64,000 nucleotides of DNA from Desulfomonilia bacterium (lineage in GTDB: Bacteria; Desulfobacterota; Desulfomonilia; UBA1062), in NCBI GenBank assembly GCA_963664325.2, contig CAXXDQ010000003.1, positions 992,001 to 1,056,000 of the forward strand. Direction: 5' to 3'. Below, piece by piece: positions 5,043 to 41,285 of the stretch (position 1 is the stretch's first letter; every line of letters begins with the position of its first letter). The position numbers and the translations under genes were made by a program. The notes under the pieces are model-generated. The model made no database searches, had not been told where the DNA came from, and saw only the letters and a program-made list of their open reading frames with translations.

Positions 5043-5176
5043 AATTGCCTCCTTCCAGCAGGATAATACGTTATCCGCCTATACCCTGGTTATGCCTGAA
5101 ACATGATAAAACACCGATGAGGAAACAGCGTGGATGATGTGTTCATAAACTGCCGGATGCGAGGTTTCTGCCTTGG

Positions 5177-5257
5177 AATATAGGCAATATGAGAACTTCA
5201 TGTCAAGCTGATAAACCCAGGCAAACTGCTTGACATAAAACCTTCAATCTCTATACT
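5177..5257. promoter_or_regulatory. Back-to-back divergent sigma70-type promoters
   Basis: Plus strand TTGACA(5230)-N16-TATACT(5252) toward the kinase gene; minus strand TTGACA(5206)-N18-TATATT(5182) toward the sulfatase. Confidence 0.55.
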
Positions 5258-5279
5258 GCCAACTACAAAAGGAGTATCT

Positions 5280-7946
5280 ATGACAACGAAATATCTGATG
5301 GCAATCGATATTGGAGGAGGCTCCGGACGGTGCCTTCTTCTCGATCCGGAAACCGGAGCTGTAAAGACGGCAAAGCGGAACTGGACGCATCCGGTGGCGC
5401 CGGGCACCAGCGGTCTCGGGTACTCGATGGACACCGGCGATATCCTTGGAAAGCTTGGCGAGGCGTCTTGTGAGGTGCTGGCAAAGGCCGGGGCGGAGCC
5501 GGGCCGGATCGCCGGCATTTCCGTAAGCGGCATGAGGAACACCGTTGTTGTCCTGGACGCCCGGCACGATGTTCTGCTGGCCACGCCCAACCGGGACGCC
5601 AGAGCGCTGGGTGAAGGGTTGATGCTCGGGTTTGAACGGGGAGCGGAGGTTCATGCCATAACCGGCCACTGGCCGACGCCCCTGTTCCTAGGCACACGTC
5701 TCATCTGGATGAAGAACAACGCCCCAGACCTTTTCAAGCGCGCGGCGACCGCCTTGTCCGTCACGGACTGGCTTGCATTCGTTCTTACCGGAAATGCCGC
5801 TTCCGAAAACTCCCAGGCGGGCGAATCGCTCCTCTTTGACATAAAAAAGCGTGAATGGGCATTTGACCTGATCGATTCTCTCGGAATCCCCAGACAGCTT
5901 TTCCCCGCACCTGTGGCCTCGGGCGCGCCTCTCGGCACCCTTACCAGGGAAGCAGCCGGCCTGCTGGGGCTTGTCCCGGGCATACCCGTTGCCGCGGGCG
6001 GGGCAGACACCCAGTGCGGTCTGCTCGGGGCCGGTGCCGTAATGGACTGCGACCTTGCCGTAATAGCGGGTACAACCATGCCTCTGCAGCTGGTGACGGA
6101 TGACCTTGTACTTGATGAATCGGGCAAGCTCTGGAGCGGACTGCATGTTGTCCCGGGGAAATATTTCCTTGAGAGCAACGGTCTTGTCACAGGAGATACG
6201 ATTGACTGGTTCGCTCGCATGCTCTATCCCGATTCGCCGGACCCGTCGCTCAGCCTTTTTGCCGAAGCGGAAAAGTCGCTTCCCGGCGCGGCCGGAATAT
6301 ATTCCACCTTCGGTGCCGCCCTGTTCGACGGAAGGGTGGTGGGCCTTCCCATTGGGAACCTTACCCTTTCCCATATGGTGACGGGCGATCCGTCGCGCGG
6401 CCGCAGGCACATGGTACGCGCCCTTGTCGAAGGGATAGCGTTCTCGGTGCGCGCCAATCTCGAACAGATAACCACGGTCTCGGGCAGAAAGATACCGGCG
6501 GTAAAGCTCGCGGGAGGCATGTCCAGGAGCGGGCTCTTTGCGCAGATCATTTCCGACGTGACCGGATGCGCCGTGGACGTCCCGGCAACAGCAGAGGTCT
6601 CATCCGTGGGCGCGGCCATACTGGCGGGCGTCGGGGCCGGGATATTTGAAAATCCCTCATCCGGCGTGAAGGCCGCAGCCGGGGCCTTCGATGAATGCCG
6701 TCCGGGGAAAGCCGCGGAAAAATATCAGAACCTTTATACCGGCTGGAGGCAGGCCTTCGACAAGCGTGCCGAGACTGATGCGCACATCGGCAATCTCCTT
6801 ACAACCGCCATGCTCGAGGCTTCGCCTGACGCGGGCCGGGCGGCGGACGCATCTTTTTCACCGAAAATATTTATAACCGCATCTCTGGAGAAGAATGCGA
6901 TCGGCGAATTTAAAAATATCGGCGAGGTGTCTTACGCCGGCTGGCGGGAGACCATGAAGCTGTACGACGGAGGAGAGGAGCTTGCCGGAGCGCTTTCCGG
7001 CGTACAGATTCTGATAACGGAAATGGATGTGGTGGACTTTCAGGCCATCCGCGATGCCAAAGACCTCAGGGCGATCGTAACCTGCCGCGGAAATGCCGTG
7101 AACGTTGACATCAAGGCCGCGACCGCCTACGGCATCCCGGTGATGAACACGCCCGGACGTAACGCGGACGCGGTCGCCGACCTGACGGTCGCCTTCATGG
7201 TGATGCTCGCCCGGAAGATGCCCGGGTCTCTGGACTTCCTCAAGCACGGAGACGTGAAATCGGGCGATATGGCCAGGATGGGAGAGGCCTATCTCAAATA
7301 TCAGGGCAGGGAGCTCTGGAGAAAGACTATAGGCCTTGTAGGCATGGGAAGTGTCGGGGCCGGCGTGGCTGCCAGACTGTCCCGTTTCGGTGCCAGGGTT
7401 ATCTTCTGTGATCCGATGGTGACCGAAGGCGCCGGTTCCCTGCTTTCGGCGCAAAAGGTTTGCCTCGAAGAGCTTCTTGCCGAAAGCGATTTCATAAGCA
7501 TTCATGCCCCTGCAATCGAGGCGACCAGAGGGATGATAAACCGCGGGGCTTTCGAGCGGATGAAGACCGGGGCGTATTTTATAAACACCGCAAGGGCGTC
7601 CCTTGTCGATGATGAGGCGCTTCTGTGGGCCCTTACAACAGGGAAGATCGCGGGCGCGGCGCTGGATGTGTTCTCTGCCGAACCCCCCGCATCGGACGAT
7701 GCAATAGTCTCGCACCCTAATGTTCTAGCCACCCCGCACCTGGGAGGAAACACGGAGGAGACCGCTTCTCATCAGGGGGTGATCGCTGTAGACCAGGTCA
7801 GGAAGCTTATGGCCGGGGAGAAACCGGAATACATCCTGAATCCCGGGGTGCTTGAAACCTTCACATGGTCAGGCCCCCGCCCGGAGCCGGACGGGAAGAA
7901 AAAGGACGAGCTTTCTAAAAACAAGCGGCCTACAATCGCGTCATGA
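5280..7946 (+). CDS. Fusion of FGGY carbohydrate kinase (N-terminal ~510 aa) and D-isomer-specific 2-hydroxyacid dehydrogenase (C-terminal)
   Basis: AIDIGGGSGR, GGADTQCG and GGMSRS kinase motifs; GLVGMGSVG, FINTARA, LDVFSAEP and TPHLGG dehydrogenase motifs in one uninterrupted ORF. Confidence 0.9.
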   Translation: MTTKYLMAIDIGGGSGRCLLLDPETGAVKTAKRNWTHPVAPGTSGLGYSMDTGDILGKLGEASCEVLAKAGAEPGRIAGISVSGMRNTVVVLDARHDVLLATPNRDARALGEGLMLGFERGAEVHAITGHWPTPLFLGTRLIWMKNNAPDLFKRAATALSVTDWLAFVLTGNAASENSQAGESLLFDIKKREWAFDLIDSLGIPRQLFPAPVASGAPLGTLTREAAGLLGLVPGIPVAAGGADTQCGLLGAGAVMDCDLAVIAGTTMPLQLVTDDLVLDESGKLWSGLHVVPGKYFLESNGLVTGDTIDWFARMLYPDSPDPSLSLFAEAEKSLPGAAGIYSTFGAALFDGRVVGLPIGNLTLSHMVTGDPSRGRRHMVRALVEGIAFSVRANLEQITTVSGRKIPAVKLAGGMSRSGLFAQIISDVTGCAVDVPATAEVSSVGAAILAGVGAGIFENPSSGVKAAAGAFDECRPGKAAEKYQNLYTGWRQAFDKRAETDAHIGNLLTTAMLEASPDAGRAADASFSPKIFITASLEKNAIGEFKNIGEVSYAGWRETMKLYDGGEELAGALSGVQILITEMDVVDFQAIRDAKDLRAIVTCRGNAVNVDIKAATAYGIPVMNTPGRNADAVADLTVAFMVMLARKMPGSLDFLKHGDVKSGDMARMGEAYLKYQGRELWRKTIGLVGMGSVGAGVAARLSRFGARVIFCDPMVTEGAGSLLSAQKVCLEELLAESDFISIHAPAIEATRGMINRGAFERMKTGAYFINTARASLVDDEALLWALTTGKIAGAALDVFSAEPPASDDAIVSHPNVLATPHLGGNTEETASHQGVIAVDQVRKLMAGEKPEYILNPGVLETFTWSGPRPEPDGKKKDELSKNKRPTIAS

Positions 7947-39176: not shown

Positions 39177-39439
39177 ACTTACCTCCCAACCGATCCGATG
39201 CTTAAAAATATCACGATAAAACCATTGATTCAAGCTATTATATGCTTTAATTTGTTTAAATATTAATGATTATACCGCTGAGAGATAATTGAGTTGAAAT
39301 ATTAATCATGCCTTATAATGTCATTCCAAAATAGCAAACAAAACTATAAAGTACTTTGCAAAACATTGAGCACTAATGGTGTCACCCATTAAAAGGTAGC
39401 TGTCAAGAGAGTAGGTTTCTCCGTTAGCAGAGGCGTTGG

Positions 39440-39828
39440 ACCCTTCTGCTTGCATGTGCAACCATAGCGATAATTGCTGTTTTACCATGCCCTGACTTGC
39501 CGCCGCCTTATTTTCTGTTAATATTGGTTACGGATGCCTGATCCGCACCAGTCACCCATCGGGATCAAGGTTATCTCGGGCTGCCCGAGGCCCGGAACTC
39601 TCGGGGGGGGGTCCGGGGCGAGAGGCAGCCCAACCCCTGGCTTGAAGCCCCAGAAAAAGCATCGGTTCATTGCCGTGTCCGATTTGTTTTCACAGGTTTT
39701 ATGGTTGCTGGCCAACACCTTCTGGCTCATGGCAATGGCGGTTGTCAAAGCATGGCGAGGGACGGCTGACAAATCAGGCCTTGTGGTTCTCATCCCAACA
39801 CCTTGAGGTCTTGCCGTCCCAGCCATAT
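39440..39828 (-). ncRNA. Putative bridge/seek RNA of the IS (boundaries approximate)
   Basis: Stem-internal-loop at 39752-39826 carries GGTGT and AAGGCCTGA, which match the two sides of the insertion site; a second similar loop at 39668-39737; ATGGGTGA (39559-39552) matches the circle junction. Confidence 0.75.
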
Positions 39829-40848
39829 TCATGAAACCAGCATCTCCTCTTTATAGGGGACCTGATCCTTCATGATGTAGTAGCTGGCCCTTGCCAGCTT
39901 ATGGGCCAATGCCTTTATCGCTACAAACTTATTCTGCGAAGACTCCTTGCGCTGGTAAAAGGAATTGAGCCTTCTGTTGTACCTCCTTGCTATGTTTGCA
40001 GCCTCGATAAACGCCCATGCTAAATATTTATTACCGTTCTTTGAGTTGCCTTTACCTTTGACCTTGTCATTCGATGTCCACTTGCCGGATATGCACCTGC
40101 TGTATGACGAAAAGTTGCCGACTTTCTTGAATCTCGATATGTCTCCCACCTCATACATGATTGTTAATGCCAGAGTCTTGCCTATACCCGGAACTGTAAG
40201 AAGGTTTTCAAATTCCCTTCTGAGCCTGGCTTTCTCAAGAACCGCTTTTTCTATAACCCTGATCTCATGATCCAGAGTCCTTATAGTATTTACGCCGGAT
40301 ATTGCCATCAGCCTTGAATATTTGTCCTTGAAGAGCCTTTCTATTTCTTCTTCTTTAAGGGTCTTTATATCATATGAGTTGATTCTTCTTGCCGTGCACC
40401 TGTTGATCAGTCCTTGCAGAGAAAGAATATTGGAGGTCCTTTGATGAACAAAGAAAGTCCTCTTTCTGAACAAATCCCTCAGAGGCCTTTCTTCTTTCGG
40501 GTAAATATACCCTTTCCTCAAAATGCCGAGAGAAAGCATCTGGGCCAGCCAGAACGCGTCGCTCTTGTCATCTGAATGCTTCAGCCCGCTGTACTGATGA
40601 TTCGCAGCAGGGTTTGCAAGGCACACTTCATATCCGGAATCCATCAACCCGTCCACGAGCCAGTACCAGTTGAATGTGCTCTCAACTGTAATAGCCTTGA
40701 TGTTCTCCCTGAATGGTTCAAGTTCATAGACAATCTTGGGCAGTTCGTTCGGAAGCCTCCTGTGGTAAACCTTCTCCTGAGTGATCTTATCCAGTATCCC
40801 AACGTAAGTATTGTTCGAATGAAGATCCATCCCGACGTACAGTTCCAT
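39829..40848 (-). CDS. IS110-family transposase/recombinase
   Basis: YVGMDLH, VEST and KHSDDKSDA (DEDD RuvC-like domain); LLTVPGIG, Ser-containing GKWTSN, GNKYL and ALAHKLAR; start reassigned to ATG 40848. Confidence 0.95.
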   Translation of the reverse strand: MELYVGMDLHSNNTYVGILDKITQEKVYHRRLPNELPKIVYELEPFRENIKAITVESTFNWYWLVDGLMDSGYEVCLANPAANHQYSGLKHSDDKSDAFWLAQMLSLGILRKGYIYPKEERPLRDLFRKRTFFVHQRTSNILSLQGLINRCTARRINSYDIKTLKEEEIERLFKDKYSRLMAISGVNTIRTLDHEIRVIEKAVLEKARLRREFENLLTVPGIGKTLALTIMYEVGDISRFKKVGNFSSYSRCISGKWTSNDKVKGKGNSKNGNKYLAWAFIEAANIARRYNRRLNSFYQRKESSQNKFVAIKALAHKLARASYYIMKDQVPYKEEMLVS

Positions 40849-40940
40849 CTCCTGTCCCTCCCTTCCTTCGCTTTCTATTCTCAACGTCCTCTGCTAGGGA
40901 GAAACTTACTACTCCTTAGAAACTGCCTTTTAGATGATTA

Positions 40941-41063
40941 TCAGGCCTTTATTCTTGATATTTATGTCGATTGGTTTTAGGTTTTTATTATGGATACATC
41001 GCTGAGTATCGAATATCCAAGAGCAGAATACGTTTTATTTTGTCAAGGATAAAGGCCTGACAC
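40941..41063 (+). pseudogene. Internally deleted RAYT/IS200-like (Y1) element remnant bounded by 23-bp inverted repeats
   Basis: (GTG)TCAGGCCTTTATTCTTGATA and TGTCAAGGATAAAGGCCTGACAC match at 21/23; ATG 40990 reads MDTSLSIEYPRAEY, resembling the RAYT N-terminus MxRPLRIEYPGAxYHV. Confidence 0.55.
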
Positions 41064-41102
41064 ACTGTCACCACATCTACATAAACAGGAGCAGTGGAAA
41101 TT

Positions 41103-41285
41103 ATGACAGACAGAAAGAAAGCATGGATAAGGCCGGAACTGATTGTCTTGGTCCGCAACAAACCAGAAGAGCAAGTTCTGACTGCATGTAAGACCAGTGG
41201 GCAAACGTCTTCGGTGTCCACGTTCCAGACAGGGTGCAAGGACGAATTTGGGTGTCCTGACTGCAGCGAGCCGGGCTCATCCTAA
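41103..41285 (+). CDS. Small Cys-rich RiPP-like precursor peptide (SynChlorMet-cassette type leader)
   Basis: KKAWIRPELIVLVRNKPEEQVLTACK leader, then a Ser/Thr/Gly/Cys-rich tail with GCPDC; AGGAG upstream. Confidence 0.7.
   Translation: MTDRKKAWIRPELIVLVRNKPEEQVLTACKTSGQTSSVSTFQTGCKDEFGCPDCSEPGSS

Follow-up and report, generated by a model that had tools for sequence, protein, structure and literature searches.

The non-coding region downstream of the transposase gene of an IS1111-type insertion sequence was found to carry two stem-loops, SL1 and SL2, of which the former is best interpreted as a programmable target-binding loop and the latter as a conserved paralogue of this loop that apparently acts neither as an independent address nor as a reader of the donor. 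The analysis covered a window of 64 kb (by which we mean the whole stretch of DNA under study), and all stem-loop and element coordinates given below refer to its minus strand. The function that we favor for SL2, with a probability of roughly 45% (i.e. somewhat short of even odds), is that of a second recombinase-binding loop touching just the core-adjacent bases. The preliminary description of this DNA had regarded the two loops as a naturally multiplexed guide that provides one recombinase with two addresses, and this reading is probably not the right one.

The insertion sequence and its target site

The gene preceding the loops (39829..40851) encodes a 340 aa transposase/recombinase that matches PF01548 (DEDD_Tnp_IS110, E 2.5e-13) and PF02371 (Transposase_20, E 4.4e-16), both above the curated Pfam cut-offs, and is distantly similar to the solved transposases of IS621 (8wt6_A, E 2.6e-8) and ISCro4 (9t56_A). 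At least 8000 homologues were detected at E <= 1e-30, the closest of them with 77-94% protein identity; the comparisons of flanks and loops described below took ~150 relatives at 49-66% identity and left out those at 77-94%. The tblastn search of a plasmid collection gave a best transposase identity of 52%, with the matches labeled only as 'IS110 family transposase' and no named IS1111 member among them. Traits of the IS110 family include the TG found at both junctions (in the window as well as in relatives), flanks that rejoin to give an uninterrupted repeat copy, and the lack of any long duplication of the target. The passages on the IS1111 subgroup in two reports (PMC11208160, PMC11187229) describe subterminal inverted repeats of 7-17 bp, a 7 bp extension of the left end, and a longer non-coding region downstream of the transposase gene. 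The present element displays subterminal inverted repeats (CATCTAAAAGGCAG / CTACCTTTTAATG), a 7-base extension TGATAAT outside the left one, and ~445 nt of non-coding sequence downstream of the gene vs ~90 nt upstream. By its domains, ends and non-coding layout, it can be classified as a putative IS1111-type member of the IS110 family. The Rfam covariance models assigned no family, the sole match (E 0.47) being to an unrelated thermometer within the gene.

The whole insertion sequence spans ~1.56 kb (39383..40943, with a copy of the TG core counted at each junction). Its ends were set by alignment with a sister copy in the same genus (L010:1018-2053 in G001; ~84-87% DNA identity), in which the similarity opens at CTGATAATC and closes after GGGTGACACC, and the alignments of the ~150 further relatives begin and end at the same points. 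This sister copy has an internal deletion of transposase residues ~171-340 and a different left flank, and it retains SL1, SL2 and the right-end block described below. The left end (40923..40943) consists of the core TG (40943-40942), ATAAT, and the subterminal repeat CATCTAAAAGGCAG (40936-40923), which, as read off the sequence, forms an inverted repeat with 39399-39387; TGATAATC comes after the flank in 90 of the relatives with a left junction. The right end (39383..39406), which is kept among relatives, comprises TTGACA (39406-39401), the subterminal repeat CTACCTTTTAATG (39399-39387), GG and the core TG (39384-39383). Once joined, the two ends would give TTGACA, a 17 nt spacer and GATAAT (as counted from the sequence), a candidate promoter.

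The genome contains one full copy of the element and a few short pieces. A solo left-end piece (L003, G000:C7:698368-698421; 93% identical over 54 nt) and a solo right-end piece (L002, G000:C7:57119-57215; 83% over 99 nt) each lie beside another copy of the target repeat and are traces of earlier insertions. The search for an orthologous empty site found no match to the right flank in three sister genomes (G001-G003). The joints present in read-derived contigs correspond to repeats elsewhere in the genome, not to circles or empty sites; the X1 contigs repeat the assembly, and 0 reads of the raw-read run X23 were placed on the stretch. A 210 nt contig identical to exactly 39615-39824 (the SL1-SL2 stretch) occurs in X10, a run labeled as a different organism; it may reflect either carry-over between samples or a shared element, and the data fit both. 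One locus among the relatives has SL1, SL2 and right end in duplicate (L140:4019-4462 and 5075-5521), the sets being separated by ~1.06 kb, which suggests tandem or nested copies.

The target is a copy of a genomic repeat, GTCAAGnnTAAAGGCCTGACACC, interrupted by the element so that its left half (TCAAGAATAAAGGCC) is at 40944..40958 and its right half (ACACCATTAGTG) at 39371..39382. This repeat, given more fully as GTCAAGnnTAAAGGCCTGACACC(T)TT, has ~25-30 copies (30 places at up to 4 mismatches). The 13-mer AAGGCCTGACACC occurs in the genome in 14 exact copies, or in 38 if one mismatch is allowed. An uninterrupted site paralogous to the target, ...AAAGGCCTGACACCATTTGG, was found at G000:C3:~53176, and a second, intact and inverted copy of the repeat is located ~90 nt to the left of the element (41042..41064, plus strand). 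Members of the repeat often form inverted pairs 14-90 nt apart (~25-30 places in G000), and the sites of relatives from other phyla also have GTCAA ~10-14 nt ahead of the core. The intact copy is closely followed by a 63 aa Cys-rich ORF with no Pfam match (41094-41285, plus strand), which has a 74% identical paralogue (L005, G000:C5:185579-185666) near another copy of the repeat. The target repeat may be a regulatory site of genes of this Cys-rich type.

SL1 and the right-end block

SL1 (39753..39825; a match of 57.8 bits to model R1) is closed by the stem GGGACGGC (39821-39814) / GCCGTCCC (39766-39759), and its loop reads AAGGTGTTGG-GATGAG-AACCA-C-AAGGCCTGA. The 5' strand AAGGTGT (39804-39798) is the reverse complement of the right-flank consensus ACACCTT and pairs with ACACC in the right half of the interrupted target. 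The 3' strand AAGGCCTG (39782-39775) equals the left flank plus the core, and the AT right after it (39774-39773) corresponds to the first two bases of the left end; AT follows the TG in 110 of 151 relatives, where this strand ends with TGATT. The identity of the 3' strand to the left flank of the same element was 4.76/7 (shuffled 2.63, maximum of 1000 shuffles 3.02; n=104), and the pairing of the 5' strand with the right flank was 4.85/8 (shuffled 3.35, maximum 3.75; n=97), with the caveat that these flank shuffles overstate significance because the relatives are not independent. The many differing flank types argue for a genuine tracking of flanks by SL1. The mutual information is 0.58-0.83 between the 3' strand and the left flank and 0.74 between the 5' strand and the first right-flank base, and clear single cases of tracking are provided by L015, L017, L051, L065, L123, L125, L127 and L166. 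In the sister copy L010, a new left flank (TTGTTCTGA) is accompanied by an SL1 3' strand changed to match it (CTGTTCTGA); an identical T>C change that both loops of this copy have in their 5' strands does not fit its flank. The flank match and the covariation with the flanks of ~100 relatives thus point to SL1 as a programmable target-binding loop, and we read its matches, as well as those of the block described next, as probable RNA-DNA pairings.

Separate from both loops is the conserved block CCTTGATCCCGATGGGTGACTGGTGC (39545..39570), the most conserved non-coding stretch (87-100% identical among the blastn matches listed). It contains GATGGGTGAC (39560-39551), that is, GATGGGTG plus AC, which repeats, in sense orientation, the right end (AATGGGTG) and the two flank bases adjoining it. 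Across 43 distinct block/right-end pairs, positions -7 to -1 are identical in 41-43 with the exception of position -2 (33), at which the right end has C vs T in the block in 9 of the pairs, a difference that would be tolerated by U.G pairing to the bottom strand. The block and the right end also share rare changes, G>A in 5 and G>C in 2 of these pairs. The flank positions +1/+2 of the block are identical in 36/35 of the 43, in four states, and +3/+4 in 5/3; the mutual information between the block and the first flank base (0.99) is the highest of all pairs. By this covariation with the right end and two flank bases, the right-end (donor-side) guide would be this separate block (39570-39545). 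It has in common with the SL1 3' strand the layout CC-N-six bases-TG-two bases-TGG and, by analogy to the passages on IS621 in PMC11208158 and PMC13626964, both could represent a guide followed by handshake positions.

Other conserved parts of the region include the hairpin CGGAT-CAGGC-ATCCG directly after the block (39531..39545), for which compensatory variants among relatives (CGGAC..GTCCG and CGGGT..ACCCG) were noted by eye and left uncounted, and a motif GAACCGATGCTTTTTC followed by the hairpin CTGGGGC..GCCAGGGG after SL2 (39634..39668). The latter hairpin is the one helix in the RNAalifold consensus fold of the interval between SL2 and the block, and TTTTCTGG hardly varies among 132 relatives. 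The TTTTC that follows SL2, itself near-invariant, could pair, with one mismatch, with the core G plus ATAA, making it a candidate left-end guide. Three relatives with the left end TGAAGATC or TGAAAATC carry CTTC instead; they represent one lineage and one event, and because the matching change comes from one lineage, TTTTC stays a lead, with no left-end guide established in the non-coding region of the element.

The second stem-loop

SL2 (39663..39741) is the one match in the window to the covariance model R2 (72.7 bits, E 2.4e-18). Its stem CATTGCCATG (39737-39728) / CACGGCAATG (39677-39668) encloses AAGGTGTTGG-CCAGC-AACCA-T-AAAACCTGT, which can be divided into a 5' strand AGAAGGTGT (39723-39715), a hairpin TGG-CCAGCAA-CCA, and a 3' strand TAAAACCTGTGAAAACAAATC (39701-39681). 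The preliminary description of two stem-loops on the same scaffold was confirmed, as the common motif AAGGTGTTGG-N5-6-AACCA (20-21 nt) occurs exactly twice in the 64 kb window and in 0 of 100 dinucleotide-preserving shuffles, and the stems covary in relatives; the guides described there as differing at 3 of 9 positions do so in the 3' strands. We consider the scaffold to be shared also because the model built on SL2 weakly matches the SL1 positions in relatives (21-26 bits), which would fit a common origin of both loops. Some SL2 3' strands, all in one subgroup, contain palindromes around TGT (GGATC-TGT-GATCC), which are absent in the window.

The single-sequence fold of the window was not significant (z = -1.26). 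RNAalifold applied to a MAFFT alignment of 39 sequences gave 31 pairs, 24 of them with compensatory changes, and recovered both outer stems; this result is taken as independent support because the alignments fitted to the covariance models lean towards the structure. In these model-fitted alignments, paired cells amount to 97.0% for SL1 and 96.1% for SL2, 13 and 14 of 15 pairs, respectively, are changed on both sides, and the covariation score was reached in 0/500 shuffles for either loop. A covariance-model search of the non-coding region, a check foreseen in the preliminary description, detected SL1 in 153 of 164 sources, SL2 in 150 and both in 148. SL2 is thus neither absent nor decaying in relatives, and the two-loop layout is the norm of the clade rather than the special device it had been taken for. 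Among the 16 sources without one or both loops, 10 have < 210 nt of sequence downstream of the gene. Two sources with ample downstream sequence, one without SL2 owing to a deletion inside it (L129:4035-4260) and the other without both loops (L152), are probably decayed copies.

Agreement between SL2 and the target class was observed next to the core. The base before TG in SL2 equals the flank base in 84 of 115 cases, and in the majority of classes the dinucleotide preceding the SL2 hairpin is complementary to that at the start of the right flank (fitting: AC, CC, TC, GC, TG, CT, AA and, in L028, CA; exceptions: L068, L113, L080 and the L116 group), a reading made by eye, on relatives that are not independent, with class statements resting on few lineages. 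L028 shows a single change, G>T in SL2, alongside C>A in the flank and C>A in the block. At its distal positions, SL2 resembles the target type that is most common in the respective subgroup, and these positions remain fixed as SL1 changes. Across the clade, the SL2 strands vary as much as those of SL1 (entropies of 1.2-1.7 bits), and therefore some selection on them may have been missed; within subgroups they are more stable than those of SL1.

In the mechanism that we propose, the 3' guide RNA region would contain three DNA-related modules, SL1, SL2 and the right-end block, which are assumed to lie on one RNA. SL1 would be the programmable loop reading the target, and the downstream single-stranded block (GAUGGGUG+AC) would read the right end and two target bases as the donor-side counterpart of the SL1 3' strand. 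SL2 would have arisen by an ancient duplication of the target loop and been retained by almost all relatives, with distal positions no longer serving as an address and with its agreement with the target class limited to the base preceding TG and the two to four bases that follow TG. Presumably bound by protein, it would help to build or regulate the recombination complex rather than choose a second site. It is also conceivable, although unlikely in our estimate, that SL2 is a 'resident-site' loop that holds the core-proximal flank bases of the integrated copy together with the right-end guide, with SL1 holding the new target, so that one RNA bridges the old and the new site. If true, this would permit excision or direct strand transfer without two RNA molecules, and would mean that the clade evolved a three-module guide RNA with a scaffold free to take more target loops, as suggested by the six relatives with two different SL1-type loops (see below).

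A regulatory or processing role for SL2, as a recombinase decoy or as a handle for cutting a precursor to a short seekRNA, would be in line with the passages of PMC11187229 on ISEc11, in which short and long RNAs co-purify with the transposase and the short is suggested to be derived from the long. The one-loop 82 nt seekRNA was sufficient for ISEc11 movement and moved the reporter better than the 154 nt long form (42% vs 15%), the role of which, in the words of the same paper, 'remains to be established'. However, this support comes from outside the present clade, and the core-proximal agreement of SL2 suggests a contact with DNA rather than a passive handle; we thus hold such a role to be rather doubtful.

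Could SL2 be a second working target loop with its own address, making one RNA serve two site classes? It does have the full target-loop scaffold, the donor-end guide lies elsewhere, and its strands in the main subgroup correspond to the target type found most often in the clade (..AAGATYTG / ACCCCTT). However, instead of falling into two classes by guide, the insertion sites follow SL1 and not SL2 (104 left and 97 right flanks), with no insertions matching the SL2 guide. The SL2 5' strand fits the right flank of the same element at 3.38/8 (shuffled 3.14, maximum 3.48; n=97). The SL2 3' strand shows an excess identity to the left flank (3.58/7 vs shuffled 2.51, maximum 2.92; n=104), which may stem from its shared descent with SL1. 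Of the positions at which the two loops diverge, the left flank has the SL1 base at 171, the SL2 base at 48 and neither at 93. A better fit of the left flank to SL2 than to SL1 was seen in 10 of 104 relatives, the margin being one base in 9 of these. In the subgroup with the right flank CCAnTAT, SL1 tracks every flank and SL2 is constant at ..TATGGCT, which these right flanks never fit. In L010, SL2 kept its own sequence (CAAGACCTGT vs TAAAACCTGT in the window) when the left flank and, with it, the SL1 3' strand changed. The 13-mers corresponding to an SL2 address are present in this genome as 0-1 exact copies and ~10 copies with one mismatch, i.e. at a background level, and none of them is in a repeat context, as compared with 14 exact copies for the 13-mer specified by SL1, so that the suggested reach to two variants of a repeat family finds no counterpart here. 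Overall, what stands of the original proposal is a loop built on the target-loop scaffold with different strands, whereas the choice of a second landing site is not supported, and an address of its own for SL2 appears quite improbable.

That an extra target loop can be carried is shown by six relatives (L070:4020-4234, L116:4026-4259, L126:1144-1296, L147:1293-1534, L155:1035-1281, L161:4024-4266), in which two tandem SL1-type loops with different strands are present upstream of SL2. These have the two-guide architecture proposed for SL1 and SL2, but by way of SL1 duplication. In L070 and L147, the left flank now present is matched by the SL1-type loop adjacent to SL2 but not by the other one. 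Such pairs may represent either natural multiplexing, which they show to be possible on this scaffold, or a snapshot of retargeting.

As the second loop, which lies to the 3' side of the target loop, is conserved throughout the clade and is steadier than SL1 within subgroups, SL2 has the appearance of an ordinary donor-binding loop of a two-loop, IS621-like bridge RNA. We nevertheless judge this assignment very improbable, as neither SL2 strand matches, in either sense, the expected donor junction ..TTTTAATGGG-TG-ATAATCATC.. (AATGGG-TG-ATAATC), the element ends are near-invariant while the SL2 strands vary, and it is the separate block (39570-39545) that covaries with the right end. The local scores of the SL2 strands were at or below shuffled levels against the reverse-complement left end and the sense right end, and near them against the reverse complement of the right end (4.23 vs shuffled 3.82, maximum 4.01). 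The SL2 3' tail was also considered as a sense copy of the left end (TGATAATCATC) and rejected, the match being marginal (mean local score 4.31 vs shuffled 3.99, maximum 4.17). A search for an RNA-RNA partner of the SL2 strands returned, as top mutual-information columns, the first flank base and its twin in the block, which are not pairable, and no consistent match to SL2 was found among fixed internal or flanking DNA sites. Finally, a sense ORF that is open in the window (39832-39518, 104 aa) raised the notion that the stretch codes for a small protein, with the loops being incidental. This can be practically dismissed, since any given sense frame is open over SL1-SL2 in just 5-19 of 151 relatives, the stems keep pairing via compensatory changes, and the linker ranges in length between 12 and 312 nt.

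Bridge and seek RNAs are under development as programmable recombination tools, and the IS1111-type branch with its downstream RNA is less understood. The ~150 natural elements compared here separate three parts, namely a loop that is retargeted, its frozen twin and, at a distance, a guide that carries handshake-like bases and is directed at the end of the element itself. If the twin loop indeed has a role in assembly, excision or control, as in the reading of SL2 as a second recombinase-binding loop, this would bear on the trimming and engineering of such RNAs; if SL2 is a mere relic kept for protein binding, the finding would be an ordinary one.

Comparison with known guide RNAs

A full-text literature search returned no paper on two, second, multiple or duplicated target-binding loops or on a tandem bridge RNA, and the term 'Long seekRNA' led only to the Siddiquee paper (PMC11187229) and its preprint. 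The closest parallels are with the seekRNA/bridge RNA elements of the IS1111 group (ISEc11, ISPa11, ISKpn4) as portrayed in passages of PMC11187229 and PMC11208160. There, as here, a DEDD transposase of ~340 aa is followed by the non-coding region, the inverted repeats are subterminal, and the top-strand match sits 5' of the bottom-strand match. A promoter formed by the joined ends is a predicted trait, represented here by the candidate described above. Insertion after TG is the same as that listed for ISEc11 in Table 1 of PMC13604230. SL1 and SL2 together (163 nt) are close in length to the long RNA form of the group (145-170 nt in the relevant passage of PMC11187229), with ISEc11 being a different, distantly related element and its long form being compared by size, not by fold. 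According to the corresponding statement of Durrant et al. (PMC11208160), many IS1111 orthologues have the nucleotides that bind the donor placed within a multi-loop structure, with which the separate right-end guide of the present element agrees. On the other hand, unlike in these passages on the IS1111 group, the second loop is here a clear duplicate of the target loop, and the right-end guide is located ~100 nt further on.

The likeness to the IS621 bridge RNA, as described in PMC11208160 and PMC11208158, would be in the principle that a guide strand reads a single DNA strand, to one side of a short core. The two core-adjacent bases coming from the other partner are likewise represented, here by AT after the SL1 3' strand and by AC, CC, TC and so on after the right-end guide. 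Unlike in IS621, the strands come in the opposite order, the RNA follows the gene on its 3' side, and the core is TG, not CT; moreover, there would be three modules vs two, with no donor pairing in the second loop.

Two further systems, described in preprints, are relevant to the possible use of a twin loop: the 'TBL-only RNA plus bridge RNA' direct-transfer pathway of CazIS110-1 (bioRxiv 10.1101/2025.10.25.684509) and the half-match recombination of IS621 (bioRxiv 10.64898/2026.08.31.748434). The loops of CazIS110-1 are on separate RNAs and have the same guide, whereas here one RNA is assumed and the second loop is different and does not track the flanks. The complexes of these two systems, which involve either a pair of like loops or substrates that are half-matched, nevertheless illustrate a conceivable use for two target-type loops.
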